Source of the DNA: Gammaproteobacteria bacterium
GTDB lineage: Bacteria; Pseudomonadota; Gammaproteobacteria; CBDBNL01; JAAOII01
Direction of reading: 5' to 3'
Assembly: GCA_965215225.1 (NCBI GenBank)
Contig: OZ244039.1
Span: 111,771 to 175,770 of the forward strand
Length of the DNA: 64,000 nucleotides
Below the pieces are notes generated by a model, which saw only the letters and a program-made list of their open reading frames with translations, had not been told where the DNA came from and did not search any database. The translations under genes were made by a program, and so were the position numbers. How positions within the stretch are numbered: the first letter of the stretch is position 1; each line of letters starts with the position of its first letter. This document shows, piece by piece, positions 21,804 through 41,083 of the stretch.

Positions 21804-21965
21804 CCCTTCACCAAACTAGACAAGCGGGAAGCAGGACACAAAGGAGTGGCATAACGGAGGCACAAGAAAGACATAGACGAGGAAAAACATCCCTTCACCA
21901 AACTAGACAAGCGGGAAGCAGGACACAAAGGAGTGGCATAACGGAGGCACAAGAAAGACATAGGG
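21736..21965. repeat. Three tandem 87-bp copies of the 5' end (start-codon region) of the 16365-21803 gene.
   Basis: Unit period of exactly 87 bp (acacaaaggagtggcataacggaggcacaagaaagacatagacgag...). Upstream copies carry ATG-initiated short ORFs that end at a TAG created by a 1-nt difference from the gene-proximal copy. Confidence 0.8.
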
Positions 21966-22225
21966 GAGGTGAGATAAGAGAATAGAAGCGGGACCCAATA
22001 TCCACAATATTGAAGAAGCGGAGCTTCACTTCCTTGTCTTCACCGAAAAACAAAAATTGTCTTGTCATGGTTAATGATTGAAACTAATAAGAACATTGTT
22101 CAGCTGCTTATCAGCTAGCTAAAAGCAGAAATGGTTTCATAGTCCTATTATATCTTTTCTTCCAACTAAAAAAAGGAATACTGTAATCATATTAGCAGTC
22201 TTAGTTTGTTAGTTTTTGTCAGTTT

Positions 22226-22645
22226 AAGGAAGGAAGCCGCTCATCTAAACGGAATGGTTTAATTTGTCAAGCGTCCCAGCCAAAGCAAGTTGTCAGCTTA
22301 AGATGAGAGGCTAATCAAAATCAGCCCAAGAGGGAAGTAGATTAGCTAAATGGGTCTGGCTGGAGTTCCTCTAGCCTAGCCGAGAATCTAAGCCAAAGCC
22401 AGTTGTCAGTTTAAGGAAGGAAGCAACTCGTCTAAGCGGGTTCGGTTTAGTTGGGGTTTGGCAGGCGTCCCCTCCAAAGACCACCAGCTACTTCGGTTGA
22501 AGCTGAGGAACTAAGTCAAAGCCAGCTATCTATATATAAGAAGGAAAGCAGATTAGCTAAATGGATCTGGTTGGGGTTCATCTATCCTAGCCCCTTCGGT
22601 TGAAGCTGAGGAACTAAGTCAAGGCAAGTTGGTGGTTTAGGAAAA
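22226..22645. repeat. Third array (~4 units) of the junction-derived repeat family, upstream of the 16365-21803 gene.
   Basis: Units contain aaggaagcaactcgtctaagcgggttcggtttagttggggtttggcaggcgtcccctccaaagaccaccagctac and ttcggttgaagctgaggaactaagtcaaagccagc. Confidence 0.8.
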
Positions 22646-22647
22646 TA

Positions 22648-22840
22648 GGCGGATTCACATTTAAAGTGCAACATCTGTTGCTAAATTATAATTGATTTCG
22701 CTGAGTTGTTAGAACACTTCAGCGGGTGTTTCGAATCCGAGGCACTTTCGTGGTCGGTTGTTCAATCGGGTCATGATTTTAGTTATTATTTGGTTAGATA
22801 GATTTCGGAAGGACATTCTTTTCTCTGAAAGATAATGCTT
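22648..22840 (-). mobile_element. IS30-family right-end remnant (IRR ggcggattcacatttaaagtgcaacatc plus ~50 C-terminal transposase codons).
   Basis: Colinear nucleotide similarity to the 3' ~190 bp of the intact IS copy, in reverse orientation. Confidence 0.6.
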
Positions 22841-22912
22841 TTTACACATTTTAGATCGGCTAGTTATCTTGGAGTCAGGTTGCCCTTAGGATGTAAATTT
22901 ATGTTGTAGTCA

Positions 22913-23659
22913 TCAGACATTATTGTGTCTTTGATGAATGGTGTTTATTGTTTTCTTGTTTCTATTAATCGATATGACTTGCCTCCCATGTTTTTTTGCT
23001 GCTGTCCCAGTAGTTTCGTTCCCGCCAGAAAGAATCAACACAGTATTACCTACATTACTATGAGCTAAGATGATTCGCTCCAAAATATTAAAGGGTCTTT
23101 GAATAGAGTTCTTATTCCCATTATTCTTTTCTTTGCTATTACTTTTTAGTATCGGCATACTATCCCACCAGACATCAGTCGGAGTTTTGCCACGCTTAGC
23201 CTTTTCATCTCCTACTAACATAGGCGCCATATATGGTATGCGATCTATTTCCTCGTAGTTATAGCTATAATTTTTGTTATCCTTTGTGTACCACAAGATA
23301 TAGTGATGTTTTGTCGGCCATCTCGATCTGCTTCGAGCCCTTCCCTCATAGGCTAGGATGATTTCGTTTATAAAATTACTCCTACCAAATAATTTATCCA
23401 TCTCAATTTTGATATAGTGAACCTCTCTATAGTCTGCTTGTAAAAAGAAACTTCCGTTATCACTTAATAATGGATATGCTAACTCCACTCTATCCATCAA
23501 GAATGAAATGTGGTTTCTGGATTTGTCACCTTGCCCTCGCCTATTCTTAAAGAGCCGCTCAATGTAAATAAGATCTATGCTACCCTTTTTTATGGTAGGT
23601 AAATTCATATCTTCTTTCCAAACTAAAAAACAATTGCTGAAATCATATCGGCATGGCAA
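22913..23659 (-). CDS. Degenerate beta-class (CcrM-like) DNA methyltransferase homologue with both catalytic motifs ablated. A likely inactive pseudo-enzyme or early-stage pseudogene, although the ORF is intact.
   Basis: Colinear with CcrM: SIDLIYIERLF (for SVDLIFADPPY), LSDNGSFFLQADY (for LKPNGSLWVIGSY), HHYILWYTKDNKNYSYNYEEI (for [19 protein letters not shown]), and ILSGGNETTGTAAKKHGRQVISI (for [25 protein letters not shown]). DPPY is replaced by ERLF and D-FxGxG by SGGNE. Confidence 0.5.
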   Translation of the reverse strand: MPCRYDFSNCFLVWKEDMNLPTIKKGSIDLIYIERLFKNRRGQGDKSRNHISFLMDRVELAYPLLSDNGSFFLQADYREVHYIKIEMDKLFGRSNFINEIILAYEGRARSRSRWPTKHHYILWYTKDNKNYSYNYEEIDRIPYMAPMLVGDEKAKRGKTPTDVWWDSMPILKSNSKEKNNGNKNSIQRPFNILERIILAHSNVGNTVLILSGGNETTGTAAKKHGRQVISINRNKKTINTIHQRHNNV

Positions 23660-23873
23660 TACGGATACTTCATTATACCTTCATTGCCCATTGCCATTAG
23701 ATCTTCCTTCCTTTGCCAAACTCTTGATTTGAAAGTTCTGATTAATTAAAGCAACTCAAATAAGTTCTACTAACTACAATTGAGTCAAACCATCTAAGCC
23801 AATTTGAAATAAATCATCTTATAATGACAACTCAAGAATCATTTAAATAATTCTAACTTCTATTTGACTAACT

Positions 23874-24992
23874 ATGAAAAAAATAGCGTTCTACCTTCCT
23901 TTATTACTGATGGCCAGTCTGCCAGTTCATTCATTGGAGCTGGTTACCAGTATCAAACCGCTTCAGCTAATGGCATCGGAGCTTATCCTACCCCAAGACC
24001 GGGTAGCTTATCTCATCCCACCTAATGCATCGCCTCACACCTATGGCTTGAAACCCTCTGCCATAAGGCAAGCAAGACAAGCCGACCTTGTTCTCTGGGT
24101 TGGCAGTGGGCTGGAAAGCAAATGGGGGAAGTTGTTCACTAGCCTCGACTCATCTATTGAGCTAGCTCAGGCACTAGGCTTACAAGAGGAGAGAGAAGAA
24201 CATGGTGAGGACCATGATAAACACCATGGTGAAAAGCACGATGAAGAGCATAGCGAAGAGCATGATGAAGAGCATAGCGAAGAGCATGATGAAGAGCATA
24301 GCGAAGAGCATGATGAAGAACATAGTGAAAAGCACGATGAAGACCATGGTGAAAAACATGGTGAAAAACATGGTGAAGAGCATGGTGAAAAACATGGTGA
24401 AGAGCATGGTGAAAAGCATGATGAAGACCATCATGAAGACCATGATGAGGAACATGGTGAAGAGCATGCTCATCACGACCATTCTCATTCAATTGACCTT
24501 CATATCTGGTTGTCGCCTCCATTGATGAGGCAGACAGCAGCCGTTATCACCGACCGCTTAATCCAACTCAATCCTTCTCAAGCAGAATCCTACCAACAAA
24601 AATTGGCTGCTTTTGAAAGAGACCTAGCCACCGCCATTAATGCCATAAACAACGACCTACTAGCTGTAAGGGATAAGAAGTTCTATACCATGCATGATGC
24701 CTATAACTACTTCACTTCCTATTTTCATCTCAGCAACACTGGTTATCTGACCCTCTCGCCTGAGATTCCCCTGTCAGCTTCCCATCTACAGAGGGTTCGC
24801 TCCGACCTAAAAAACAAAGACATCGTCTGCGTATTTAGCGAGCCGCAACTAGATGAGGCAGCGGTTCTCAAACTCATTGAAGGCACTCAGGTTCGTTATG
24901 GCATTCTAGACCCCCTAGCAGGCAATGCGAACGACTATTTCAGCTTTCTCCACACGCTAGCAGATTCATTCAAACAATGCCTTGCTTCCTAA
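23874..24992 (+). CDS. znuA: Zinc ABC transporter periplasmic substrate-binding protein ZnuA-like, with a long His/Glu/Asp-rich loop.
   Basis: Signal peptide. Cluster-9 SBP pattern. Loop HGEDHDKHHGEKHDEEHSEEHDEEH... encoded by 24-bp nucleotide repeats (agcgaagagcatgatgaagagcat x4). The ORFs 24154-24525 are artefacts of this repeat. Confidence 0.75.
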   Translation: MKKIAFYLPLLLMASLPVHSLELVTSIKPLQLMASELILPQDRVAYLIPPNASPHTYGLKPSAIRQARQADLVLWVGSGLESKWGKLFTSLDSSIELAQALGLQEEREEHGEDHDKHHGEKHDEEHSEEHDEEHSEEHDEEHSEEHDEEHSEKHDEDHGEKHGEKHGEEHGEKHGEEHGEKHDEDHHEDHDEEHGEEHAHHDHSHSIDLHIWLSPPLMRQTAAVITDRLIQLNPSQAESYQQKLAAFERDLATAINAINNDLLAVRDKKFYTMHDAYNYFTSYFHLSNTGYLTLSPEIPLSASHLQRVRSDLKNKDIVCVFSEPQLDEAAVLKLIEGTQVRYGILDPLAGNANDYFSFLHTLADSFKQCLAS

Positions 24993-25031
24993 GTTCTCGC
25001 TGCTCTGGTTTATGACCGGCTCAATAAACCT

Positions 25032-25934
25032 ATGACATCCCTTTCCTTACGTATCCCTGCCAGCAGCGGCAACCTCGGCGCAGGGTTTGATTCTTTGGGC
25101 TTAGCCTTCGCCGTCTATAATACTTTTGACTTTGCCTGGCAAGAAGAATACCAGCTAAGCTATCGACATCCGCAGGATGAGCTATTAGACCCCAAGCGCA
25201 ATTATGTTATCAATAGCTATAAATTTGCCTGTGCCAAACTAGGCAAAGAGACCCCGCCTTTTGCGCTCCACTGTGATAATCAAATCCCCTCTGCCAGCGG
25301 CTTTGGTTCCAGTGGCACGGCTGCCCTGGCTGGCTGCGCCGCCGCTCTCCTCTACCACACTGGCACATTGGATCAAGACCAGCTGCTACAGCTGGCATGT
25401 GAGTTGGAAGAACATCCAGACAATGTCGCCGCCAGTCTTTACGGCGGCTTTGTCATCAGCCATCATGATAAAGGCAACGGCAGTTGGGCTTACAATTTTC
25501 CGGTTTCAACCTCACTATCCTATTGGGTCATCCTACCAAAACTACAAACCTATACTCAGGTAGCCCGTAAAAACATTCCACCCGTCATAGAGCGCCAGGC
25601 TGTTGTCTTCAACCTTAGCCACGCTGCCCTTACCACCGCCGCCTATATCAAGCAAGACTATCAGCTGCTGAGATCAGCAGTTGATGACCGAATTCACGAA
25701 GAGCTAAGGGATATGCCTCAACTGGACTATCTAGGTCTCAAAAGGAAGCTACTAATAACAAATGTTTTTTCGGTATCCCTATGTGGCAGTGGTCCTGCTA
25801 TATTGGTGCTTGCCCCTGAGATAAGTAGCTTCCAAAAAAAGCTAGTCGGCGAACACTTCGCTAGGCTGAGCGTGGAATGGCGCGACTCCCAGCTCAAAGC
25901 AGATAATCAAGGAATGACCTTCGACTATGAATGA
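25032..25934 (+). CDS. thrB: Homoserine kinase (GHMP kinase family).
   Basis: N-terminal LRIPASSGNLGAGFDSLGLA and the GHMP motif region. 300 aa. Confidence 0.8.
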   Translation: MTSLSLRIPASSGNLGAGFDSLGLAFAVYNTFDFAWQEEYQLSYRHPQDELLDPKRNYVINSYKFACAKLGKETPPFALHCDNQIPSASGFGSSGTAALAGCAAALLYHTGTLDQDQLLQLACELEEHPDNVAASLYGGFVISHHDKGNGSWAYNFPVSTSLSYWVILPKLQTYTQVARKNIPPVIERQAVVFNLSHAALTTAAYIKQDYQLLRSAVDDRIHEELRDMPQLDYLGLKRKLLITNVFSVSLCGSGPAILVLAPEISSFQKKLVGEHFARLSVEWRDSQLKADNQGMTFDYE

Positions 25935-28641
25935 ACACTTAATTCTGGTGGATGGCTCGAGCCATATGTTTCGCGCCTACTATGCCCTTCAACAGCAGGG
26001 TTTCTCTAGCCCCGACGGCAAACCCACTGGTGTTCTTTATGGGGTGCTCAATATGATAAAGGCATTAGGCAAACAATATCCCAAAAGCACTATCATCATA
26101 GTTTTTGATGGCAAGGGCAAAGGAGTCCGCAGCCAATGGTATCCCAAATATAAAGCACAGCGCCCATCTATGCCTGAGGATATGAGAGAACAGCTGCCCC
26201 CTTTGTTTGATGCCATTCGGGCTTTGGGAATTCCCTTAGTCCAACAAGGCGATTGGGAAGCCGATGACCTCATAGGCGTGCTGGTTAAACAAGCACCTTC
26301 GCTATATAAGAAAACCTACATAGCGACTCGCGACAAGGACTTGGCTCAGCTAATCTCCACTAGGGTTTCAATCCTTGCCGATGAAAAGACAAACACTCTA
26401 TGGGGGCCAGCTGAGGTAGAGGAAAAATTTGGGGTGCCACCCAAGCTGATTAACGACTATCTAGCACTTCTAGGTGACACGGTTGACAACATTATCGGAG
26501 TAGAAAAGGTGGGGCCAAAGACAGCCGCTCAGTTGCTCAAAAAATACGGCTCGCTAGAAGAGCTACTTGCCAATCTCAATGAGGTTCCAGGCAAGGTGGG
26601 CGAAAATCTCATGGCAGCTAAGGAACGGCTACCGCTAAACAAGAGGCTCACCACTCTTATCTCTTCCATCTCGCCGCTACCAGACCTTGCTTCATTAAAG
26701 ACAAGACCGCCAGATAATGACAGGCTGCGCGCGCTCTATTTAGAATATGGCTTGCGCAGTTTTCTTAAAGAGATGCCAAGCCATGACAGCCCAACTGAAC
26801 AAGAGTACCATCTCATAACCGAAAAAGAGCAATGGCAAGAGCTAATCAAGCAGCTGCGCAAGAACAAGTCTTTTGTCTTCAATCTGCATAGTGAGAAAAA
26901 GGAAGACCTCAATGCCGCTCCAGTTGGGTTCTCATTTGCTATGTCTGCAGCCAAAGCCTATTATGTGCCGTGCGGTCATTCTTACTTAGATGCCCCTCCC
27001 CAATTAACTATTGAAGAGATCTTGGCTGAGCTAAAACCACTCTTCGTTTCTCACACTATTATTAGTCATGGACTCAAATATAGCTTCCATCTGCTTGCCA
27101 ACCAACTCCAACTGGAGAAGCGAGCAGAAAAACAATCATTGAATCAGCTGCCGAGCCAATGGGAAGATGTTCGTCTGATGTCCTATACTATCAATTCCAC
27201 TGCCAGTAACAATCATTCACTATCCGATCTCAGCCAAACCTATCTCGCTACCATTAAGCAAGACGACCAAGAACTGCTTGGCAAAGGCAAAAAGCAAATA
27301 GGCTTCGCTGACCTAGATCTAGCCAAAGCAAAGGACTATGCTGGCGAAGAAAGTCTGCTCAGCTTTCAGCTATTTGACCGATTGAGCGAAGAGATGAAAA
27401 AGGAAAAAGATTTGATGGCTGTCTATCAGAAAATAGAAAAACCCCTCATGCCAGTGCTGATGCATATGGAACGCACCGGCGCATTGTTGGACTCTAAGCT
27501 ATTACAGCAACAAAGTCGCCAACTGGAAAAAGCTATGAAGCAGATCGCCGAGCAGATCTTCTCTCATAGTAAAACGGAATTCAACATCAACTCCCCAGCT
27601 CAGCTTGGCAAGGTGCTTTATGAGGAGATGGGCTTTACTTCTGGCCGCAAAACAAAGGGTGGTAAGCACTCCACTGCCGAAAGCATTTTGCAAGAACTAG
27701 CTATTGAGCACGAATTTCCTCGTCTGATATTAGACTACCGCAGTGTCAGCAAACTAAAGAATACCTATACCGACCCTCTCCCTCAATTAGTGAATCCGAA
27801 AACCGGCCGCGTCCATACTTCTTTTGATCAAGCGGGGGCTGCCACCGGACGACTAGCTTCCCTCCACCCTAATCTACAAAATATTCCCATTAGAACAGCT
27901 GAGGGTAGGCGGATTCGCCAAGCATTCATCGCTCCAGCCGGTCGGCTACTAGCATCTGCTGATTACTCCCAAATTGAACTGCGCATCATGGCACATCTAT
28001 CCAAGGACAAGACCCTACTTGACGCCTTTCAGCGCAAACAAGACATCCATAGAGTTACCGCAGCTGAGGTGCTTGGCAAAGAACCGAGCCAAGTAACCGA
28101 TGAGGAGCGGCGACAAGCCAAGGCAATCAACTTTGGCCTAATCTATGGTATGTCCGCCTTCGGCCTAGCAAGACAACTGAGAATAGAACAATCAGCCGCC
28201 CAAGAATTCATCAAGATATATTTCAATCGCTATCCGGGAGTTCAAAAGTATATTACCCAGACGCGCAGCCTAGCCCACAAAAAAGGCTGGGCTGAAACGC
28301 TCAGTGGGCGGCGAGTCTATACCCCTGATATTAACAGCACTAACTTTGTTGCCCGCTCGGCAGCCGAGCGAGCTGCTATCAATGCCCCAGTGCAAGGGAC
28401 TGCCGCTGACATCATCAAATTAGCCATGCTGAAAGTATCCGCTGCCCTGGATCATCAACGCGCCAGTTTAATTTTGCAGGTGCATGATGAATTGCTACTG
28501 GAAGTAGATGAAGACTATATCGACCAATGCGAGCAATTGGTGCGCGACTCTATGACTCAGGTCGCGCCACTAAAAGAGAAACTTCAGGTGGATCTGGAGG
28601 TGGATTTCGGCTATGGCGCTAATTGGGATGAGGCTCACTGA
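25927..28641 (+). CDS. polA: DNA polymerase I (5'-3' exonuclease, 3'-5' exonuclease-like and polymerase domains).
   Basis: 904 aa. Motif A DYSQIELRIMAHLS, motif B RRQAKAINFGLIYGMSAFGL, motif C LQVHDELLLEV. N-terminal FEN domain. Confidence 0.95.
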   Translation: MNEHLILVDGSSHMFRAYYALQQQGFSSPDGKPTGVLYGVLNMIKALGKQYPKSTIIIVFDGKGKGVRSQWYPKYKAQRPSMPEDMREQLPPLFDAIRALGIPLVQQGDWEADDLIGVLVKQAPSLYKKTYIATRDKDLAQLISTRVSILADEKTNTLWGPAEVEEKFGVPPKLINDYLALLGDTVDNIIGVEKVGPKTAAQLLKKYGSLEELLANLNEVPGKVGENLMAAKERLPLNKRLTTLISSISPLPDLASLKTRPPDNDRLRALYLEYGLRSFLKEMPSHDSPTEQEYHLITEKEQWQELIKQLRKNKSFVFNLHSEKKEDLNAAPVGFSFAMSAAKAYYVPCGHSYLDAPPQLTIEEILAELKPLFVSHTIISHGLKYSFHLLANQLQLEKRAEKQSLNQLPSQWEDVRLMSYTINSTASNNHSLSDLSQTYLATIKQDDQELLGKGKKQIGFADLDLAKAKDYAGEESLLSFQLFDRLSEEMKKEKDLMAVYQKIEKPLMPVLMHMERTGALLDSKLLQQQSRQLEKAMKQIAEQIFSHSKTEFNINSPAQLGKVLYEEMGFTSGRKTKGGKHSTAESILQELAIEHEFPRLILDYRSVSKLKNTYTDPLPQLVNPKTGRVHTSFDQAGAATGRLASLHPNLQNIPIRTAEGRRIRQAFIAPAGRLLASADYSQIELRIMAHLSKDKTLLDAFQRKQDIHRVTAAEVLGKEPSQVTDEERRQAKAINFGLIYGMSAFGLARQLRIEQSAAQEFIKIYFNRYPGVQKYITQTRSLAHKKGWAETLSGRRVYTPDINSTNFVARSAAERAAINAPVQGTAADIIKLAMLKVSAALDHQRASLILQVHDELLLEVDEDYIDQCEQLVRDSMTQVAPLKEKLQVDLEVDFGYGANWDEAH

Positions 28642-29445
28642 TTAGATCTTATGACTAGGCAGTCAGTTTCCATGACTCAAGTTGCGCCACTAAAAGAGAA
28701 ACTTCAGGCGGATCTGGGGGTGGGTTTGGAGGTGGATTTAGGGGCGGATTTGGAGGTGGGTTTGGGGGTGGATTTAGGGGCGGGTCTGGGGGCGGATTTC
28801 GGCTATGGTGCTAATTGGGACGAGGCTCATTGACTAGGTCTTATGACTAAGCGGTCAATTCTCGTGATTCAGGTTGCGCCACTAAAAGAGAAGCCTCAGG
28901 TGGATCTGGAGGTAGATTTAGGGGCGGATTTCGGCTATGGCGCTAATTGGGATGAGGCTCATTGATTAGGTCTTATGACTAGGCAGTCAGTTTCCATGAC
29001 TCAAGTTGCGCCACTAAAAGAGAAACTTCAGGTGGGTTTGGGGGTGAGTCTGGGGGTGAGTCTGGGGGTGGGTTTGGAGGTGGATTTGAGAGCAGATTTC
29101 GGCTATGGCGCTAATTGGGACGAGGCTCATTGATTAGGTCTTATGACTAAGCGGTCAATTCTCGTGATTCAGGTTGCGCCACTAAAAGAGAAACTTCAGG
29201 TGGGTCTGGAGGTGGATTTAGGAGCGGATTTGGAGGTGGATTTCGGCTATGGCGCTAATTGGGACGAGGCTCATTGATTAGGTCTTATGACTAAGCGGTC
29301 AATTCTCGTGATTCAGGTTGCGCCACTAAAAGAGAAACTTCAGGTGGGTTTGGGGGTGAGTCTGGGGGTGGGTTTGGAGGTGGATTTGAGAGCAGATTTC
29401 GGCTATGGCGCTAATTGGGATGAGGCTCATTGACTAGGCCTGATG
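28642..29445 (+). repeat. Six tandem ~130-190 bp copies of the polA-3'-end / mnmA-5'-start junction. Each contains a decoy mnmA-like ATG fused to a polA tail and an internal variable 12-bp (ggtggatttrgg) microsatellite.
   Basis: Each unit reads ...ttaggtcttatgactaggcagtcagtttccatgactcaagttgcgccactaaaagagaaacttcaggtgg(at/gt)ctgg... ggctatggcgctaattgggatgaggctcattga. ORF 28651-28833 is one such unit. Confidence 0.85.
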
Positions 29446-30507
29446 GCTAGGCAGTCAGTTTTCGTTGCCCTTTCGGGTGGAGTAGATTCCGCCTTGACTG
29501 CCTCACTGCTCCAAGAACAAGGCTATGAGGTAGTCGCGGTGTTTATGCGTAACTGGATGGATGACGATGGTCGTCCTGAATGCACTAGCCTAGCAGATTG
29601 GTTGTCCGCGAGGCGAGTTGGCGACCACCTGGGCATAGAAGTCCAACAGGTTAATTTCAGCCAGCTCTACAAGGAGAAGGTCTTTCATCCATTCTTGCGC
29701 GGGCTGGTAAATGGTATCACACCCAATCCAGATGTGCTTTGTAATCACTTTATAAAATTTCAGGCACTTAGACACTATGTTCGCCATCAAGGAGGGCAAC
29801 TACTAGCCACTGGCCATTATGCCCGCCTGGTTTCAACGCCACCAGAGCTGCATCGTGCCTATGATAGCACCAAGTGCCAGACCTATTTCCTTTTTGCAGT
29901 GAACAATTTTGCCAACTGCCTTATGCCCCTTGGCGATCTTAGTAAGTCTCAGGTGCGGGCTATGGCAAAGAAACGGCGCCTGCCTAACTATGCCCGTAAA
30001 GACAGCACTGGGCTATGCTTCATTGGCGAAAGAAACTTTTCTCACTTCATTAGTCGTTATCTTAAAGATGACCCAGGTGAGATAGTGGATAGCCACGGAA
30101 AGGTCCGCGGCCAGCATAGGGGGCTATTTCACTATACCATAGGTCAGCGGCGCGGCCTTGGCATTGGCGGAAAGGCAGATAGCGAACATAGTCCTTGGTA
30201 TGTGATTGACAAAGACAAAAAGCACAACCGCTTAATAGTAGGGCAACAAACCAATGCTCTTTATGCAAATGAGATCCGCATCACCAATCTCCACTGGATT
30301 AATGAGCCACCCAAATTGCCACTCAACTGCCAAGTGCAGATCCGCTATCGCAGCCAATCTTCCCCCTGTATAGTGAGCACTGCCAAAGAAGGCTCCTGCC
30401 GTTTGCAGTTTGCTCAGCCGCAAAAGGCTGCCACTCCAGGCCAAGCAGCCGTTTTCTATCAAGGAGAAAGGTGTCTAGGCGGAGGGTTTATTGCTTCCAA
30501 CATCTAA
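29443..30507 (+). CDS. mnmA: tRNA-specific 2-thiouridylase MnmA.
   Basis: PP-loop VALSGGVDSALTA, catalytic Cys region GLCFIGE. 354 aa. Confidence 0.9.
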   Translation: MARQSVFVALSGGVDSALTASLLQEQGYEVVAVFMRNWMDDDGRPECTSLADWLSARRVGDHLGIEVQQVNFSQLYKEKVFHPFLRGLVNGITPNPDVLCNHFIKFQALRHYVRHQGGQLLATGHYARLVSTPPELHRAYDSTKCQTYFLFAVNNFANCLMPLGDLSKSQVRAMAKKRRLPNYARKDSTGLCFIGERNFSHFISRYLKDDPGEIVDSHGKVRGQHRGLFHYTIGQRRGLGIGGKADSEHSPWYVIDKDKKHNRLIVGQQTNALYANEIRITNLHWINEPPKLPLNCQVQIRYRSQSSPCIVSTAKEGSCRLQFAQPQKAATPGQAAVFYQGERCLGGGFIASNI

Positions 30508-30779
30508 ATCTAAAAGCACACTGCTGCTTTTTTATTTCGGTTTGGGATTGGTTTACCGCTGCTAGTATTTAGGTTTGTCGCTTCCAACGTCTAAATCTAA
30601 AAGCACACCGCTGCTTTATTTCGGTTTGGGATTGGTTTACCGCTGCTAGTATTTAGGTTTGTCGCTTCCAGTATTGAGGCTTATTGCTTCTAGTATCTAG
30701 GTCTATTGCTTCCAGTATGTTCCAGTATATTAAAGCATCTAAATCTGAAGCATAGACCCTGCTAAGAAGTTCTAGTGAA

Positions 30780-31772
30780 TTACTTGTTATTAGCCTGCCC
30801 CATTAGCCAGCGTTTTGTGCTAAGGCAAATGTCATACAGACCAAAAAATGCAAGAATGGGATAAATAAAAAGGATTAACAAGGCACGTCTAATAAATATT
30901 GTCCTACCTCTCAAAAGTTGAGCTAAAAGGATTATTCTTCGTCTATAAGACTTGAGAGCACCTATGACCGAAAACCTCATACTATCCACACGTCTTGAAC
31001 GAGCAATATTCTCATCATAAAGAGGATTTAAAACGCTCGCCTTCCCAGCCTCTTCAAAATCATACCCCAATACTTCCAAATCATCCGCATAGATTTCTTC
31101 TATCAACCGTCTTGTTGGCTTGTCATAATAGTCACTATAATGTCTAGACCCACTTCCTACTCTTCGGCTTAAGGAAACATTACGCTTGGTGAGATTATGA
31201 TTGGGCACACCTAATATATCCAACAAGTAGCTAAAATCCCTCTCTAGGTTTTCATATCTCCCAATGAAAGAACAAGGGGTGCTGGTATATCGCTTGAAAC
31301 CCGAATAGTAGATGGGATTATAGTCCAATACCATAGCCTTTTGGCTCATCAAATGAAGCCTTTCATATCCAAGATCACAAAGAGGCACCCTATGAGGCCC
31401 CATCTCTTTATCTAACCGGATGGAAGCAAGTGAAGAATTAATCAATAGATCCTTAGTAAGCTCCGCATACTCCCTTAGACTATGATTGCACATAGGATTG
31501 TCTTTATATATTTCTCTATTAGGGTCAAATCGATGCAACCAAGAAGAAACAAATCTATCAAATGGGTTGCGAACAAAAGCAAAAGTGAAATAAGTAGGGA
31601 ACATATTAATATAGGGCGGACGTCTATCACCTACATAGGAGGGGCCTAAATAGGCTGATACAGTATGCCATCTCAAAAAACCCTGAAAATAGCTTGCTAT
31701 GCTACTGCTGGCAACCTTAGGAACACGAATATATATACATCTATATTTATAAGATATCAAAAGATACGTCAT
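30780..31772 (-). CDS. Carbohydrate sulfotransferase-like protein (Sulfotransfer_2 / eukaryotic CHST-type) with a C-terminal hydrophobic tail anchor. Paralogue 1 of 5.
   Basis: 5'-PSB-like CIYIRVPKVASSSI (compare CHST YCYVPKVACTNWK) and 3'-PB FVRNPFDRFVSSWLHRF (compare VRDPLERLVSAYRNKF). C-terminal LILFIYPILAFFGLYDICL. Confidence 0.6.
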   Translation of the reverse strand: MTYLLISYKYRCIYIRVPKVASSSIASYFQGFLRWHTVSAYLGPSYVGDRRPPYINMFPTYFTFAFVRNPFDRFVSSWLHRFDPNREIYKDNPMCNHSLREYAELTKDLLINSSLASIRLDKEMGPHRVPLCDLGYERLHLMSQKAMVLDYNPIYYSGFKRYTSTPCSFIGRYENLERDFSYLLDILGVPNHNLTKRNVSLSRRVGSGSRHYSDYYDKPTRRLIEEIYADDLEVLGYDFEEAGKASVLNPLYDENIARSRRVDSMRFSVIGALKSYRRRIILLAQLLRGRTIFIRRALLILFIYPILAFFGLYDICLSTKRWLMGQANNK

Positions 31773-31810
31773 GAATTTAAATCGTGAATTTGCATCATAA
31801 GTTCAACCTG

Positions 31811-31925
31811 ACGGGATTATATAATCCCATTCAAAATAATCAACAAAGAGGTTTCAAAATGTGTAAAAAGCATTATACCCACCTTTCAGTGAAAGAAAGA
31901 TATATGATAGAAGAAATGAGAAAAG
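31811..31925 (+). mobile_element. IS30-family left-end remnant (IRL palindrome gggattatataatccc plus start of the transposase gene).
   Basis: Sequence similarity to 3085-3200 of the intact copy. Confidence 0.55.
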
Positions 31926-32067
31926 ACACTCTATAAGGCCCCGTCTTTTTATCTGAAGGAAAGGAAATGGATGACTGTTAGAGTCCAATATGCAATGGAA
32001 AATTCCTCTCATCGATTAGATGCTAATATTTGAAATTGTCTAATTTTATTGTGGGCTCCCCTTTCAA

Positions 32068-33384
32068 CTATGAGTCTTGAGCAATTTCCAGTTCGGTCAC
32101 TACCCCCGTTTCAATTGCCTTATCAATAACCCGTTTGTCCTCAATAAGAAACGCCGGATCCACCGAACTTAGTGGCTGTATCATTTTCATAAATTTAGAA
32201 TGTCTATTTTTTCCACGATTCCAACCAGTATATAGATCACGAAAATGGCAGAAAAATGGATCTCCCCTTTTTTCATCAACAAGCCGCCATTTATCTTTCT
32301 CTGCTCTGTTTCGCAAAAGCTTAAAAACCACATCCCACTTTTTAGAGATAGCAGCTCTCTTTATCTGCATCAGCAACGATAGAATATTTTGTGGTCTTGT
32401 TAGTACACAATAATGATTTGTCATTTGCTGAACCTTATTAGGTTGGCAAATATATTTAGGGTTGTGCTTAAAATCCCAATGTTTTAACTGGTATCTAATT
32501 CGGTGATGGTAAAAACGTGCTTGCTTCTTAGCCGACACTTGACCAGGTGGGAAGAGGTAATGAGCAAAAGGAATATATGGTCTTATAAGGTTCTCAGGTA
32601 GTTGCAAATATTCTTTTAGCTGCGCAGGACTATCAAAATACAGAAATTCGTCAATATCTAAATTGATACACCATGAGGTTTGCATACCAAAGAAGAGATG
32701 AAAATGATTGAATGCACCTGCGTTGGCATATTTGTATCGCCAGAGCATATCAGGGATAGGGCCAAATTTATAAGGCCAATGGACTAAGATAATCTCCACT
32801 TCTTCATCTATCTCAGCAAGTTCCTTATCTAGTGTTGGCCAATAACTACTGCCATTATCATAAAGCACTATTCTTTGAACCCCATGCACCCTTATATGCC
32901 AACGGCACCAATCCTTTATCCAGATAAGCAGATTATCTTTTTGTAAACCAACCAAACACAAATCCTTTTGGGTCAGAGAAATATTCTTGTGGCAATCGCA
33001 AGAAATCTCGATACTGAACTCCTTAAATACAAATTCCAAATCTAACTGAGATACTCGCGTCCATCGAGAAGGAAGTTTTATATCTATTACTTCTGGCCCC
33101 TTCCATCTATCATACCCTACTAGTTTAAAGCTAAGACTCTTGCCTTTATACTTGATAGCTAAGGGTGCACCTATGCTATAAAAAGGCGGGCCTATACAGA
33201 CCAACCGATTAGATTGAACAAACACATCATAGAACAAAGTTTTACTATCATAATTGGCTTGCTGCTGCCTAGGGAGCAAGTGAGGCATTAATTTTTGTTG
33301 TTCCAATGGAACAGCTCTCTCTATGTCATCAGGTAGAAATACTGCTTGAGGATAGTAGGTTCTGATTGCCGGCTTCTTCTTCAT
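32068..33384 (-). CDS. GT-A fold glycosyltransferase, GT92/DUF23-like. Paralogue A.
   Basis: Core ...HGVQRIVLYDNGSS...ILVHWPY...KYANAGAFNHFHLFFGMQTSWCINLDIDEFLYF with a DxDEF motif typical of GT92 (Glyco_transf_92). 438 aa, ~70% identical to 33423-34754. Confidence 0.5.
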   Translation of the reverse strand: MKKKPAIRTYYPQAVFLPDDIERAVPLEQQKLMPHLLPRQQQANYDSKTLFYDVFVQSNRLVCIGPPFYSIGAPLAIKYKGKSLSFKLVGYDRWKGPEVIDIKLPSRWTRVSQLDLEFVFKEFSIEISCDCHKNISLTQKDLCLVGLQKDNLLIWIKDWCRWHIRVHGVQRIVLYDNGSSYWPTLDKELAEIDEEVEIILVHWPYKFGPIPDMLWRYKYANAGAFNHFHLFFGMQTSWCINLDIDEFLYFDSPAQLKEYLQLPENLIRPYIPFAHYLFPPGQVSAKKQARFYHHRIRYQLKHWDFKHNPKYICQPNKVQQMTNHYCVLTRPQNILSLLMQIKRAAISKKWDVVFKLLRNRAEKDKWRLVDEKRGDPFFCHFRDLYTGWNRGKNRHSKFMKMIQPLSSVDPAFLIEDKRVIDKAIETGVVTELEIAQDS

Positions 33385-33422
33385 ATGTCTTGATATTATT
33401 AATGATTATAGCTCCTTTTCAA

Positions 33423-34754
33423 CTATGACTCTTGAGAAATTTCTAGTTCAGTCACCACCCCTGTTTCAACTGCCTTATCAATAACCCGTTTGTCCTCAAT
33501 AAGAAATGCCGGATCCACCGAGCTTAGAGGCTGTATCGTTTTTATAAAAGTAAAATTTTTATTTTTCCCCTCAGTCCAAGCCTCATTCCAACCTTCATGC
33601 CAACCAGTATATAGATCACGAAAATGGCAGAAAAAGGGTTTCTCCCTTTCATCAATCCTTTGCTGTTGTAATCTCCTCTTTATTTTTAGCAAAAGATATA
33701 AAATAATATTCCACTTTTCAGAGATATTATCTCTCTTTATCAGCAACAATAGAATATCTCGTACACTGTTTTGCATACAGCCATGAACTTTCATTTGCTT
33801 AATCTTATCAGGTTGGCAAATATATTTAAGGTTGTACTTCACATTCCAATATTCTGACTTGTATCTAATTCGGTGATAATAAAAACGCGCTTGCTTCTTA
33901 GCTGGGGCTTGACCAGGTGGGAAAAGGTAATGAGCTAAAGAAATATATGGTCTCATAAAATTTTTAGGCAGCTCCAAATATTTCTTTAACGGCATAGGAC
34001 TATCAAAATAAAGAAACTCATCAATATCTAAATTGATACACCATGAGGTTTGAGCACCAAAGAAGAGACGGAAATGGTTGAGCATACCGATTCTGGTATA
34101 TTTATATTTAGGGAACGTACCAGGGAAAGGGCCATATCTATAAGGCCAATGAACCAAGATAATCTCCACTTCCTCATCTATTTCAACAAGTTCCTTATCT
34201 AGAGTTGGCCAATAACTACTGCCATTATCATAAAGCACTATCCTTTGAACCCCATGCACCCTTATATGCCAACGGCACCAATCCTTTATCCAGATAAGCG
34301 AATTATCTTTTTGTAAATTAACTAAACACAAATCCCTTTGGGCCAGAGAAATGTTCTTATGGTAATGGTAAGAAACCTCAATAGTGAATTCCTCAAATAC
34401 AAATTCCAGATCTAACTGAGATGCTTGCGTCCTTCGAAAAGGGATTTTTATATCTATTACTTCCGGCCCTCTCCATTGATCTCCTCTTATCAACTTAAAT
34501 CTAAGATCCTTACCTCTATGCTTGATAGCTAAGGGTGCACCTATGCTATAAAAAGGCGGGCCTATACAGATCAACCGATTAGATTGAACAAACAGATCAT
34601 AAAACAAGGTTTTACTATCATAATAGGCTTGTTGTTGCTTAGGGAGCAAAAGGCCTATTAATTCTTGTTGTTCCAATGGAACAACTCTTTCTATACCATC
34701 AGGTAAAAATACTGCTTGAGGATAGTAGGTCCTGATTGTGGGTTTCTTTTTCAC
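33423..34754 (-). CDS. GT-A fold glycosyltransferase, GT92/DUF23-like. Paralogue B.
   Basis: Same motifs (INLDIDEFLYF). 443 aa. Tandem paralogue of 32068-33384. Confidence 0.5.
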   Translation of the reverse strand: MKKKPTIRTYYPQAVFLPDGIERVVPLEQQELIGLLLPKQQQAYYDSKTLFYDLFVQSNRLICIGPPFYSIGAPLAIKHRGKDLRFKLIRGDQWRGPEVIDIKIPFRRTQASQLDLEFVFEEFTIEVSYHYHKNISLAQRDLCLVNLQKDNSLIWIKDWCRWHIRVHGVQRIVLYDNGSSYWPTLDKELVEIDEEVEIILVHWPYRYGPFPGTFPKYKYTRIGMLNHFRLFFGAQTSWCINLDIDEFLYFDSPMPLKKYLELPKNFMRPYISLAHYLFPPGQAPAKKQARFYYHRIRYKSEYWNVKYNLKYICQPDKIKQMKVHGCMQNSVRDILLLLIKRDNISEKWNIILYLLLKIKRRLQQQRIDEREKPFFCHFRDLYTGWHEGWNEAWTEGKNKNFTFIKTIQPLSSVDPAFLIEDKRVIDKAVETGVVTELEISQES

Positions 34755-34785
34755 GAAAGTTTTGAATAATTAAAGCGATATCTTA

Positions 34786-35105
34786 TTAGTTCTTTTTTCT
34801 TACTCCAAGATACGAAAACAGCTTTTTAAGTTCTCTTTTGCTAAAATAATAGAATTCTTGCCCTAAGATTTTAATAAGCGCGTACCGGCTAAGTTTTCTA
34901 TTGGCAAGGCGATTAGTAGCATGATAGAAATATATCCCTTCCTTTATTAAGTAATAGGGATAGAGTGTAATTAATACTACTTCTCGCATTATCTTATAGT
35001 AGTGCCATTTTATATTAGTCTTAGGGGGTCTAGTGTAGTCTAAGTAACGAGATGGTATCTTTCTTTCTATGGCTTTAATCATGGATTTATTTAGTTGAAT
35101 AGTAA
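34786..35105 (-). pseudogene. Detached C-terminal domain of the IS30-disrupted DXD glycosyltransferase-like gene (see 36201-37056).
   Basis: ORF 34786-35118 (...IQLNKSMIKAIERKIPSRYLDY...LITLYPYYLIKEGIYFYHATNRLANRKLSR...) aligns with the C-terminal 100 aa of the intact paralogue 39661-40830 (IPLNKYVIRAIGKNILFLYLY...LIILYPYYLINEGIYFYHAANRLTNRKLSR). Its first codons (MGICL) come from the IS end. Confidence 0.75.
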
Positions 35106-36200
35106 GGCAGATTCCCATCTAGAATGCAACACTTGTTTCTAAATTATAGTTTATCCCGCTAAGTTGTTGGAACACTTCGGCGGGGGTTTTGAAGCCGAGG
35201 CACTTTCGTGGTCGGTTGTTCAATCGGGTCATGATTTTTATTATCATTTCTTTGGGTAGATTTCGCAAGGACATTCCTTTCGGCAGATACTCGCGGATGA
35301 GTTTATTGATACTTTCATTGGTACCTCTTTCCCAGCTGCGATAAGGCGTGGCGAAGTAGGTATCGCAGTTGAGTTTTTCGGCTATCTTCTGGTGGTCGCT
35401 GAACTCCCGCCCATTATCGAAAGTGATGGTATGGACCCAGTCGGCGATGGGTTGGAGCATGGCGGAGATAGCTTTTTCGATTGAGACCTTGTCTTTGTGT
35501 TGCACCTGGGCCATCAAGGTAAAACGGGAAGCTCGATCCACTATGGTCACTAAGAACCCTTTATGGTTGGCACCATGCATGGTATCGGCTTCCCAGTCGC
35601 CTAATCGCGTGCGTTGTTCCACTATGGCGGGGCGCTTTTCGATGCCGACCCGTCCTGGAATACACTGTTTATAGGCTTTTCGTCTATGATCATGACCGTG
35701 ATGGCGTCCTTTATTGCGAAGCAAAATATGCAGGTCACCGCTTGCTTTGCGATCCTTTGCGATCCACCGATACAGCGTATTTTTAGAAGGAGCGGGCTTC
35801 CCTATAAGACGCCAGCGCTCTACAATCTGCTCTGGACTCCATTGGATTTCTAATAAAGAGCGCACTTCTTCCTTCATCCGTTCCGTTAGAACCTCGTAGT
35901 AAGAACGTTCTAACTGTCGGGCTTGGCTTTTTTGATGCGCTTGTAAAGACGGCCGCCGCGCTTCCCGCGATTGCGCTGGATCTCTCGGCTAATAGTAGAA
36001 GGACAACGATCTAAGCGCCGAGCTATAAAGCGTATGCTCTTTCCTTCTCGCCTCATTTTTTCTATCATATATCTTTCTTTCTTTGAAAGGGGGGTATAAT
36101 GCTTTTTATACATTGTGACACCTCGTAATAATTTTTCTTGGATGGGATTATATAATCCCATCCAAGAAAAGAGGTGTTGCACTGATGGTGGGAATTTGCC
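35106..36200 (-). mobile_element. Second IS30-family copy (1095 bp, ~98% identical to copy 1) flanked by a 3-bp TSD 'taa' at 35103-35105 and 36201-36203. Its transposase gene carries a frameshift and is split into ORFs 35119-35877 and 35910-36209.
   Basis: Direct comparison with 3062-4157. Copy 1 gcggctatcgtcatttacaagc reads gcggcggccgtctttacaagc in copy 2 (1-bp loss), changing ...GKRGYRHLQAHQ... to ...GKRGGRLYKRIKKAKPDS*. Confidence 0.85.
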
Positions 36201-37056
36201 TAAAAACATAAGTTTGATTCTTTACTAAGGATTTATCAGATAAAGAATAGTTTGTTCTTTGATTTATTAGCTTAAACAATTCTGGTGATCCTTTATATAG
36301 ATGCATCATAATAAAGTAGTTCCAGTGCGAATTAGTGTCATTAAAACGATCATTAAGACTTATTAGAGGCTTATTCTTATAAGTTATGCCTTTGTTAGTG
36401 TCACTATTAATTCGTAAGAGGTCATGAATCACCACTCTTGATTCATGAGAATATACATTTGCCCGCCATCTTAGCCTTAAGTTATAATTTGGCGAAAAAT
36501 GGAATAGGGTAAAATATTTGGCAACATCACTTAAGCAAATTTGTTCTATAAAAGGGGAGGAACCTTTTGCCATTGCATTTCTCCACCAGTGAGGGAATTC
36601 CTTATTGTTAACAAAAATCCATGCACCACTATATTTGCCATATATATTAATCTCGCGTAGAGGACGCCTTGGTGTCAGACCCAGATCTTTGCTATCATCA
36701 ACCAAGCCAAGAGGAGAAGTGATGACGACATCCGCATCCATGTATAGGCTATTGGGATGGTGTTTTAAAGCTTGCTCAATAATAATAGATTTTTGACTTA
36801 GGAACTCTATTGCTTCTGGAACACTTAGTAACTTCCAATTTTTATTTCCATATTTTTCTAATCCCAAGGTTATAGTGATATTTGTTGGTAAACCAGTCTC
36901 TTGTTCTAGTCTCTTCCTCACTATTGATTGAGCCGAGATAAAAATCGGCATGTCTGGGTGAAATACTACAATAGAACGGAGCAACAAGAGCAGCTCATCA
37001 TAGAACGGAAAGCTAGCCATGGTGGCGATAGAACGAATGTTAGTAGTTTTTGTCAT
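36201..37056 (-). pseudogene. N-terminal ~285 codons of a DXD-motif glycosyltransferase-like gene interrupted by IS30 copy 2. Removing the IS and one TSD restores an in-frame gene (...KNQTYVF-T-IQLNKS...).
   Basis: ORF 36148-37056 runs into the IS IR. Paralogous to 39661-40830 (YMDADVVITSPLG vs FMDSDVTIASPLG). Confidence 0.75.
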
Positions 37057-37106
37057 AAAGCTTTAATTAATGTAGATAATGCGCAAATAATCCACTCTCC
37101 ATTAAA

Positions 37107-38111
37107 TTATTTGCTCTCACCTGTGTCCTCCTCTTTTTTAGGTCTCAACCATTTCACCCAAATATAATGCAGTTGCAGTCCGATAAATACAGAAATAGGA
37201 TAGATGAAAAGGAATATTATGGCCCTTCTGCTCATAAATCTTCTATCCCAGAAAGATTTAACCAAAAACACAAGCCGTCTCTGGTAAGCCCTTAAAGTAT
37301 CCAAGACTGAATTCTTCACACTATTGGCATGTCTTGCTCGAGCTACCTCTTCATCATAAAGAGGATTTAGAATACTCACCTTTCCACCCTCTTCAAAATC
37401 ATACCCCAACAGACTTAAATCATCCGCATAGATTTCTTCTACCAGCCGTCTTGTGGGCTTGTCATAATAGTCACTATAATGCCTTTTTTTACCTTCCCCT
37501 ACTCTTCGGCTTAAGGAAACATTGCCTTTGGGTAGATCATGATTGGGCGCACCTAGTATATTCATCACGCAGCGCAAATCTTTCTCTAGGGTTTCATATC
37601 TCCCAATGAAAGAACAGGGGGCACTGTTGCATCGCTTGACACCAAAATAGTACTCAGGGTTATAATCCAACAAAAAATCTTTTTGGTATCTACAATGATG
37701 GCCTTCATACCAAAGGTCACAAAGAGGCACCCTATGAGGCCCCATCTCTCTATCTGAAGAAAGAGAAGTAGATGACCGATAGATTAATAGATCCTTAACA
37801 AGCTCCGCATACTCCCTTAGACTATGATTGCGCATAGGGTTCCTTTTAAACTCTTTCCTGTTAGGATCAAATCGATGCAACCAAGCAGAGACAAACTTGT
37901 CAAATGGATTACGGACAAAAATAAAAGTGAAATAGGTCGGAACCATATTAATACAGTGTGGAAGTCTATCCAAATAATTGCCCAGATAGCGGTGGCCTAA
38001 CGAAGATTCTGTAGAATGCCCCTTCACAAAAAAACGGAAATAATTATCCAGACTAGAGCTGGCAACCTTAGGGTGGTTAATATATATATATCTATATTTA
38101 TAAGATATCAT
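37107..38111 (-). CDS. Carbohydrate sulfotransferase-like protein, paralogue 2.
   Basis: MISYKYRYIYINHPKVASSSL...FVRNPFDKFVSAWLHRF. C-terminal hydrophobic helix IIFLFIYPISVFIGL. Confidence 0.6.
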   Translation of the reverse strand: MISYKYRYIYINHPKVASSSLDNYFRFFVKGHSTESSLGHRYLGNYLDRLPHCINMVPTYFTFIFVRNPFDKFVSAWLHRFDPNRKEFKRNPMRNHSLREYAELVKDLLIYRSSTSLSSDREMGPHRVPLCDLWYEGHHCRYQKDFLLDYNPEYYFGVKRCNSAPCSFIGRYETLEKDLRCVMNILGAPNHDLPKGNVSLSRRVGEGKKRHYSDYYDKPTRRLVEEIYADDLSLLGYDFEEGGKVSILNPLYDEEVARARHANSVKNSVLDTLRAYQRRLVFLVKSFWDRRFMSRRAIIFLFIYPISVFIGLQLHYIWVKWLRPKKEEDTGESK

Positions 38112-38153
38112 CTGATCCTTTCCCTAATAAATCCCTCATTGAATCCTACTAGC

Positions 38154-39131
38154 TTACCCCATTAGCCAGCGTTTTATGTCACGACAAATGTCATACAAAC
38201 CGATAAATGTAAGAAGCGGCAAAACAAAAAAGAACTTAATAACCCTTCTGCTGATAAATTTTCTATCCCAGAAAGACTTAACCCAAAACATAGACCGCCG
38301 TTGGTAAGCCCTTACAGCATCGAAGACTGAATTCTTCATGCTATTGGCATGTCTTGCCCGAGCCACCTCCTCATCATAAAGAGGATTTAAAACGCTCAGC
38401 TTCCCAGCCTCTTCAAAATCATAACCTAATAGATTCAGATCATCCGCATAGATTTCTTCTACCAGCCGTCTTGTCGGTTTGTCATAATAGTCACTATAAT
38501 GTCTCTTTTTACCCCCATCCACTATTCGGCTTAAGGAAACATTATGCTTGGGTAGCTTGTAGTATGGCGCGCCTAGTATATTCATCACGCAACGCAAATC
38601 TTTCTCTAGGTTCTCATATCTCCCAATAAAAGAACAGGGGGCATTGTTACATCTTTTAACATCATAATAGTACTCGGGGTTATAATTCAACAATAAATCC
38701 TTTTGTCTCCCCAAATGAAGTCTTTCATACGGAAGATCGCAAAAAGGTACTCTATGAGGCCCCATTTCTTTGTCTGGAGGAAAAGAGGGAACTGGCGAAC
38801 TATTCAATAGATCCTTAGTAAGTTCCGCATACTCCCTTAGGCTATGATTAGGTATAGGGTGATCTTGAAATCCTTTTCTATTAGGGTCAAGTCGAGGCGC
38901 CCAAGTAGCAACAAATCTATCAAATGGATTGCGAACGAAAACAAAAGTAAAGTAGGTTGGAAACATATTAATACAGTGAGGAAGCCTAGCCTGATAATAG
39001 CCGTGATAATAGCGGCCTAAGGGGCGTACTATCTCATGCCCTGCCAAAAAATCCTTGACATAAGCCCTCAGACTAGTGCTAGCAACCTTACCATTGCGAA
39101 TAAGTATACATCTATATTTATAAGATATCAT
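38154..39131 (-). CDS. Carbohydrate sulfotransferase-like protein, paralogue 3.
   Basis: MISYKYRCILIRNGKVASTSL...FVRNPFDRFVATWAPRL. C-terminal FFFVLPLLTFIGLYDI. Confidence 0.6.
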   Translation of the reverse strand: MISYKYRCILIRNGKVASTSLRAYVKDFLAGHEIVRPLGRYYHGYYQARLPHCINMFPTYFTFVFVRNPFDRFVATWAPRLDPNRKGFQDHPIPNHSLREYAELTKDLLNSSPVPSFPPDKEMGPHRVPFCDLPYERLHLGRQKDLLLNYNPEYYYDVKRCNNAPCSFIGRYENLEKDLRCVMNILGAPYYKLPKHNVSLSRIVDGGKKRHYSDYYDKPTRRLVEEIYADDLNLLGYDFEEAGKLSVLNPLYDEEVARARHANSMKNSVFDAVRAYQRRSMFWVKSFWDRKFISRRVIKFFFVLPLLTFIGLYDICRDIKRWLMG

Positions 39132-39184
39132 ATGATCCTTTCCTCATAAATACTTAAACATGAATTCCCGTCATAGGTGCAACC

Positions 39185-40830: not shown

Positions 40831-40842
40831 TCCTTAGGGCGG

Positions 40843-40930: not shown

Positions 40931-40934
40931 AGAT

Positions 40935-41075: not shown

Positions 41076-41083
41076 GAGATACC

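Follow-up and report, generated by a model that had tools for sequence, protein, structure and literature searches.

A lineage-specific minisatellite built from the polA–mnmA gene junction of a gammaproteobacterium, a probable by-product of tandem duplication

Organization of the polA–mnmA locus

The 64-kb stretch of DNA analysed here (the window) contains polA and mnmA, which lie on the plus strand in the same frame and are separated by a tandem array (Table 1). The polA product matches the Pfam family DNA_pol_A (2.3e-154, profile positions 2–381 of 381) and also contains both exonuclease domains, while the mnmA product matches tRNA_Me_trans (1.2e-63) from residue 5. On its upstream side, polA overlaps by 8 nt a GHMP-kinase gene (25032–25934), which is probably the homoserine kinase gene thrB; thrB, polA and mnmA are tightly packed. 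MnmA of the window is 100% identical to P0132, encoded on a 2,317,988-bp NCBI/ENA contig.

Table 1. Coordinates of the genes, repeat units, decoy ORFs and related arrays in the window.
Feature	Coordinates	Strand	Length	Description
polA	25927–28641	+	904 aa	DNA polymerase I; intact
Native polA tail	28552–28641	+		MTQVAPLKEKLQVDLEVDFGYGANWDEAH, then stop; source of the repeated tail
mnmA	29443–30507	+	354 aa	tRNA 2-thiouridine synthase; intact
Inter-genic array	28642–29442	+	801 nt	Holds five of the six junctions; the sixth is formed by the last tail copy and the real mnmA start
Unit 1	28552–28671		120 nt	Native polA tail and decoy start 1
Unit 2	28672–28863		192 nt
Unit 3	28864–28995		132 nt
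Unit 4	28996–29163		168 nt
Unit 5	29164–29307		144 nt
Unit 6	29308–29463		156 nt	Last tail copy and real mnmA start at 29443
Decoy ORF1	28651–28833	+	60 aa	Subtype A; 8 motif copies (28708–28803)
Decoy ORF2	28843–28965	+	40 aa	Subtype B; 3 motif copies (28900–28935)
Decoy ORF3	28975–29133	+	52 aa	Subtype A; 6 motif copies (29032–29103); G-quadruplex motif 29034–29068
Decoy ORF4	29143–29277	+	44 aa	Subtype B; 4 motif copies (29200–29247)
Decoy ORF5	29287–29433	+	48 aa	Subtype B; 5 motif copies (29344–29403); G-quadruplex motif 29346–29372
mnmA 3' array	30485–30718	+		Last 7 codons, stop and ~60 nt of 3' flank, x2.2 (84-nt unit), then a 22-nt unit x3.9
Permease start array	44897–46341			TATAAT-like box, ATG and first ~28 codons, at least 7 copies, units of about 103 nt
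1812-aa ORF start array	21717–21963	minus		87-nt unit: GAAGGG motif, ATG and first 24 codons, x2.9

Structure of the array

The basic unit of the array is 120 nt long and spans the boundary between the two genes. It consists of the last 29 polA codons with the stop codon (90 nt, 28552–28641), a 9-nt spacer, and the first 7 mnmA codons (21 nt). Five extra copies follow head to tail between 28672 and 29463, a result on which direct reading, Tandem Repeats Finder (scores 403–986) and a separate parsing agree. The bounds of each unit are counted from a copy of the polA tail through the next copy of the mnmA start. The units are mutually 83–92% identical over more than 100 nt, which excludes a chance origin of the repeats. 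The unit ends share 1–2 nt at most (28543–28560 compared with 29458–29472, by inspection), and a BLAST search of the 64-kb window returned no copies of the unit elsewhere.

The original prediction, made from the sequence of this region, described an amplified junction in which decoy mnmA starts are joined in frame to polA tails, and parsing of the units bears this out. Its six tandem junctions are also present, each with the stop, 9 nt and ATG, but the added units, and hence the decoy starts, number five rather than six. The copied segment, put at ~30 polA and ~8 mnmA codons, is 29 codons plus the stop and 7 codons, respectively. Similarly, the peptides predicted at ~45–60 aa correspond to real ORFs, whose actual sizes are 60, 40, 52, 44 and 48 aa.

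In every added copy, the 7 mnmA codons are fused in frame with the polA tail, giving five intact ORFs that each start with ATG and have a TGA exactly 9 nt upstream. The start regions fall into two subtypes, A (MTRQSVS-MTQ; ORFs 1 and 3) and B (MTKRSIL-VIQ; ORFs 2, 4 and 5), so that a higher-order period of two units, or about 300 nt, is superimposed on the array. The real mnmA start (MARQSVF) likewise has a tail copy, a TGA and a 9-nt spacer upstream, and it is the tail copy of decoy ORF5 that provides this context. Decoy ORF4 is annotated publicly as protein P0121.

A 12-nt motif, GTGGATCTGGAG or GTGGATTTCGGC, encoding VDLE or VDFG, is present in two copies in native polA (28588–28611) and in 8, 3, 6, 4 and 5 copies in the successive added units. 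The copy number of this microsatellite therefore does vary between units, as predicted. Because only the motif count varies, the lengths of all units are multiples of 12.

The sense strand of the array is rich in G (35.8%) and poor in C (14.9%); its C/G ratio is 0.41, whereas the genes on either side have about 1.1. Canonical G-quadruplex motifs occur just twice in the 64-kb window, both strands included, and both times on this strand of the array (Table 1). The two motifs arose by GAT-to-GGT and GAG-to-GGG transitions within the 12-nt motif.

Distribution among strains and relatives

Relatives of the locus were gathered through protein searches. The gene order thrB-polA-mnmA and a single tight polA-mnmA junction are found in all six relatives, L081, L088, L082, L083, L084 and L085, whose MnmA proteins are 89, 89, 87, 78, 67 and 62% identical to that of the window. 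The polA-mnmA spacers of these relatives are 9, 9, 9, 11 and 4 nt, with one gene pair overlapping. A protein search with decoy ORF4 against 5.8 billion proteins gave matches from two sources only, the window's own genome and L087. The latter is an independent 9.9-kb ENA contig that is 94.5–95.6% identical to the window over 9.4 kb and thus represents a different strain; the polA genes of the two differ by 4.4%. Other searches were less informative: the closest match to MnmA among those listed in a scan of genome contigs has 48% identity, scans of metagenome contigs with the polA-tail DNA and with a back-translated pattern returned 0 hits each, and exact look-ups of the window MnmA and of P0121 found no record.

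L087 also carries the array. Its polA is followed by decoy ORFs of 60, 52, 44 and 52 aa and by a fifth, truncated at the end of the contig. With letters for the start subtype and numbers for the copies of the 12-mer, the unit order is A8 B3 A6 B4 B5 in the window and A8 A6 B4 A6 B.. in L087. The first added unit of one strain is the orthologue of that of the other, with 2 differences over 201 nt (28642–28842), and the 9-nt spacing and ATG are exact at all 11 junctions (6 in the window and 5 in L087). Sequence variants are distributed by strain: a GAC variant occurs in three window units and zero L087 units, while a GGT variant occurs in three L087 units and one window unit. Such spread of variants within each array indicates concerted evolution, as would result from re-duplication and conversion. 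The comparison of unit copy number with related genomes that was proposed with the original prediction thus yields a single junction in the six relatives and an array in L087. Since the array is absent from the former and present in both ~95%-identical strains, it arose after the split from the ~10%-diverged lineage and before the split of these two strains.

The same comparison bears on whether the array is a mis-assembly of a single junction, the artefact that had been named as a possible refutation. Repeats are error-prone in assembly, the L087 contig ends within the array, and the copy number given here for the window is that of its assembly. However, an independent assembly from a strain with 4.4% divergence in polA carries the same first unit followed by a different order of units. 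In addition, the units differ by 8–17% in sequence and in their 12-mer count, which is not something that assemblers invent, and the source contig is 2.32 Mb long. We therefore regard an assembly artefact as very improbable.

Divergence between window positions 19482–28842 and L087 is strongly mosaic. Stretches of ~1.5 kb with 0–1 differences (20.7–22.2 kb) adjoin blocks of 5–20% divergence, suggesting frequent recombination with diverged relatives. The head of the native polA tail (28552–28611) has 9 differences in 60 nt, resulting in 3 amino-acid changes in L087. In L084, the relative with 67% identity, a 96-aa ORF (3042–3332) with a 5'-3' exonuclease N-terminal domain is located directly upstream of a full-length polA, possibly as a partial tandem copy of the 5' end of that gene.

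Other tandem arrays in the window

The window contains 22 merged tandem arrays, which make up 17.8% of its length, and the polA–mnmA array is one of at least four amplifications at gene boundaries. A second lies at the other end of mnmA, where the intergenic region is 272 nt long compared to 52 nt in L081. A third precedes an amino-acid permease gene (46337–47797, plus strand). Here, a 23-nt microsatellite (ATGACAAAGCAAGAGGAAAGAGC) that stems from the start region lies interspersed among the copies, and the array contains 34 start-like ATGAC.A motifs; in L082, the segment is present once and the intergenic region measures 84 nt. The array at the start of an 1812-aa ORF creates 24-aa decoy ORFs, and its copy number is equal in L087 (2239–2485). 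The syntenic 12–13 kb of L081 and L082 contain no tandem repeats apart from a His-rich tract in ZnuA.

The presence of boundary amplifications at other genes of the window and their absence in sister lineages argue for a genome-wide mutational process. The polA–mnmA array would then be one product of a lineage-specific burst of tandem duplication, as these sequence comparisons point to, and a device specific to mnmA is not indicated. A defective 5' nuclease of Pol I was considered as the cause of the burst and rejected, as the lineage-specific substitutions in this enzyme (V143I and K266R) are conservative and none appears suspicious.

The local origin of each array also bears on the possibility that an intergenic repeat of the MIRU, MITE or REP type, dispersed or mobile, was inserted here. 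Such an element would fit the position of the array between co-directional genes and its ORFs bridging stop and start, as in MIRUs (PMC3184786). However, all parts of the unit come from the flanking genes, the window has no second copy, no terminal inverted repeats are present, and the other arrays of the window are each built from their own local sequence. An inserted element is accordingly an explanation to which we assign almost no weight.

Several further features of the window are repetitive. A large intergenic array (11988–13034) comprises about 10 copies of 86–102-nt units with TATATATAAG-like motifs, and large intergenic arrays of a 7-nt GCCTTCT unit (about 87 copies) and a 14-nt unit (about 30 copies) lie upstream of a 2506-aa ORF (61449–62488). 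Very large, repeat-rich ORFs (802–2506 aa) occupy 13205–21803 and 47802–61322, where the GC skew is strongly negative. The minus strand carries a cluster of paralogous ORFs of about 330 aa, at least 7 in number (30780–43112); the one that was scanned belongs to Sulfotransfer_2.

Expression signals and translational context

A consensus scan of the plus strand found no sigma-70-like promoter in the array, and no convincing terminator was found on this strand of the array. The sole terminator-like hit near it is a 5-bp stem over the real mnmA start. Predicted folding of the array RNA shows no excess of structure relative to shuffled sequences (z = +0.99), nor do the 90-mers around the six junctions (z between 0 and 1.25). 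No Rfam family, regulatory codon runs or alternative hairpins were found in the array. An attenuator or other structured RNA was rejected on these grounds, there being no terminator or antiterminator hairpins with a U-run, no excess folding and no Rfam match. The suggestion of a uORF or attenuation array, with which the original prediction had closed, is thus not supported, in view of the missing terminator- and promoter-like sites and the unremarkable folding, as well as the occurrence of the same kind of amplification at other gene boundaries. A phase switch acting by frameshifts, as in a contingency locus, was also rejected: every change in length is a multiple of 12 nt, and the scan detected no promoter.

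Rho-dependent termination is disfavoured by G-rich, C-poor RNA, which provides poor loading sites for Rho. Given the composition of its sense strand, premature Rho termination within the array would therefore be less likely.

The only Shine-Dalgarno-like element, GAGG, is located 16 nt upstream of every ATG in the array, and L081 and L082 are without even this element; no Shine-Dalgarno sequence at a functional distance was found at the junctions. The stop, spacer and ATG lie within a weak consensus hairpin, which eight distinct junction variants, among them those of L081 and L082, preserve in 95% of cells. Its shuffle control is borderline (31/500) and these sequences also served to derive the structure, so it only hints at some constraint on the junction. 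Many gene starts in the window (for example, those at 7564, 3147 and 23659 on the minus strand and 46337 on the plus strand) have a TATAAT-like box 7–11 nt upstream and no Shine-Dalgarno match, a pattern which suggests that leaderless or very short-leader mRNAs are frequent in this organism.

Termination-reinitiation coupling between adjacent genes requires very short gaps (PMC10666635, PMC6728339) and is almost abolished at gaps of about 20–40 nt (PMC10666635). Direct coupling of polA to mnmA across 801 nt would thus be impossible unless it is relayed. The main functional alternative is a selected translational relay or rheostat, in which mnmA translation needs ribosomes handed on from polA at each 9-nt gap. 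With less than 100% of the ribosomes passed on per unit, the number of units would set the MnmA:PolA ratio, which gains and losses of units would adjust, and the micro-ORFs would be kept open by selection. Several features are compatible with this proposal: the tight polA-mnmA junction of the six relatives, the lack of a functional Shine-Dalgarno site or promoter, the weak conserved hairpin over the junction, and the steep fall of coupling with distance (PMC10666635). The array also differs between the two strains, none of their nine complete decoys is broken, and the ATG and the gap of exactly 9 nt are retained at every one of the 11 junctions.

Tests for selection on the decoy ORFs

The significance of the intact reading frames was assessed with the nine complete decoy ORFs of the two strains. 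Of the possible transitions, 4.35% would break a decoy ORF. For about 31 events, about 1.35 disruptive hits are expected, and the probability of observing no break is about 0.26 under neutrality; intactness was therefore discarded as evidence of selection. The conservation of the first added unit (2 differences in 201 nt) was discarded as well, since 25% of all 201-nt windows have 2 or fewer differences; its low divergence follows from the mosaic, recombinational divergence between the strains.

Outside the 12-mer tract, the nine decoys differ by 15 substitution events, all of which are transitions. In the 9 mnmA-derived codons, 8 of these are non-synonymous and 1 is synonymous, whereas the polA-derived parts contain 4 synonymous and 2 non-synonymous events (P about 0.10, not significant). 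A codon-position or synonymous bias was accordingly not accepted as evidence of selection, the 4:2 ratio of the polA part being non-significant and reversed to 1:8 in the mnmA part. The last 11 codons show synonymous differences only among the nine copies, with just 2 substitution events there, and the 12-nt tract varies freely (18 variants).

These results weaken the proposed relay, for which the intact ORFs are statistically ordinary and the low divergence of the first added unit has another explanation in mosaic recombination. Any copy of the unit brings the 9-nt geometry along with it, and other gene starts of the window were amplified without preservation of the frame, as illustrated by the ATG-rich 23-nt microsatellite of the permease. 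A selected relay is, in our view, unlikely.

The decoys could instead be genuine small-protein genes, whose acidic, Gly/Leu/Val-rich peptides ending in FGYGANWDEAH, the C-terminal motif of polA, are themselves under selection. Two public annotations list them as proteins, and the purely synonymous variation of the last 11 codons would be expected of such genes. However, that variation amounts to just 2 events, the overall synonymous bias is not significant, the 9 N-terminal codons have changed mainly non-synonymously (8 to 1), and the 12-nt tract is free to vary. Moreover, the decoy peptides belong to no Pfam family, and the search of 5.8 billion proteins found no homologues beyond the two contigs. 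Selected small proteins are thus quite improbable, and the five annotated hypothetical proteins are almost certainly by-products of the duplications.

Origin of the array

The explanation that we favor, and consider probable, is that the array is a lineage-specific junction minisatellite, a tolerated and non-adaptive by-product of the burst of tandem duplication. Its first step would have been a tandem duplication of the 120-bp segment in which the polA stop and the mnmA start meet. The array would later have been enlarged and reshuffled through slippage, unequal exchange and conversion, including expansion of the 12-bp motif that was already present twice in polA. After a duplication spanning the boundary, polA would remain whole at the left edge, and mnmA would remain whole at the right edge, still preceded by its native 99 nt. 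The persistence of the array can be explained by this arrangement, which spares both genes and the context of the mnmA start. In a tight operon, boundary-spanning duplications would be among the few events tolerated by selection. Duplications within a gene disrupt it, and the enrichment of arrays at gene boundaries would then be what selection leaves behind. The five in-frame chimeric micro-ORFs, with their ancestral stop/9-nt/ATG geometry, would be a by-product of the same process.

It is plausible from the gene arrangement that ribosomes or transcripts arrive at mnmA only after passing through the array, as the original prediction proposed for six decoy sites, because the operon-like tight junction is conserved in the six relatives. 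We infer that mnmA, which has no own promoter or functional Shine-Dalgarno sequence, would normally depend on polA translation by coupling. Ribosomes now probably get to it in one of two ways: through the five micro-ORFs by serial termination-reinitiation, which is plausible, or by initiating independently at the junction context, which all units, the last one too, have kept. The net effect on mnmA expression would be neutral to dampening, and a dedicated regulatory function is not indicated.

A bolder version combines the relay with the mutational process: the five micro-ORFs would carry coupling across 0.8 kb, the number of units would act as an evolvable dial for MnmA, and the lineage would be a tandem-duplication mutator that builds arrays of gene starts and ends. 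This combination appears rather doubtful. Should the lineage be such a mutator, expression variants and new chimeric micro-proteins would arise in it naturally. Serial translation of the micro-ORFs, if it occurs, would make the locus a natural test of how far coupling can be relayed, and an example of how a gene survives displacement by 0.8 kb from its coupling partner. Regardless of function, the junction minisatellite is a clean and datable case of a junction-spanning duplication that makes chimeric ORFs. The genome, which is small (about 2.3 Mb) and gammaproteobacterial, should be useful for studying what drives bursts of minisatellites in bacteria.

Comparison with known systems

Leader-peptide attenuators and uORFs share with the array the presence of short ORFs upstream of a gene on the same transcript. 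The polA–mnmA ORFs, however, are accidental chimeras of the flanking genes and are accompanied by neither hairpins nor a terminator.

The array also resembles gene pairs linked by termination-reinitiation, with its stop/9-nt/ATG arrangement, the tight spacing seen in relatives, and no Shine-Dalgarno sequence at a functional distance. The 9-nt gap at all 11 junctions lies within the spacing typical of such pairs (up to about 10–20 nt), and a consensus scan found no independent ribosome-binding site or promoter for the downstream gene. Known coupled pairs consist of two real genes linked directly, whereas here a relay through five non-genic micro-ORFs is needed. We know of no demonstrated case in which coupling is relayed through a series of non-genic micro-ORFs.

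The closest known analogues are the mycobacterial MIRU arrays inside operons. MIRU-VNTR loci consist of 40–100-bp tandem units in operon intergenic regions with strain-variable copy number; MIRU ORFs abut the neighboring genes, and promoter activity has been reported for the senX3-regX3 MIRU arrays (PMC3184786, PMC4213456). As at senX3-regX3 of M. tuberculosis, the polA–mnmA array is located between co-directional operon genes, is bridged by small ORFs that join stop and start, and varies between strains. However, MIRUs are a single, possibly mobile family at about 40–50 loci, while the polA–mnmA unit derives from its flanking genes and is confined to a sole locus in the window, showing no MIRU-like dispersal within these 64 kb. 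Its units are longer (120–192 bp), its ORFs are 9 nt apart and do not overlap, and no promoter activity is predicted, unlike that reported for the senX3-regX3 arrays.

Tandem duplication driven by microhomology or slippage is an established class of mechanism (bioRxiv 10.1101/2020.03.03.972455). The ends of the polA–mnmA unit share at most 2 nt. With bacterial minisatellites, the array has in common local head-to-tail copies, changes in copy number, re-duplication of two-unit blocks and expansion of an internal microsatellite. It is unusual among them in its setting, a 64-kb window with an array density of 18% in which gene starts and ends were captured repeatedly. The two hallmarks of a minisatellite or VNTR are both present, head-to-tail units of at least 10 bp that exceed chance and an arrangement that differs between strains. 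The polA–mnmA array is neither an attenuator nor a contingency locus, and behaves as a minisatellite/VNTR.
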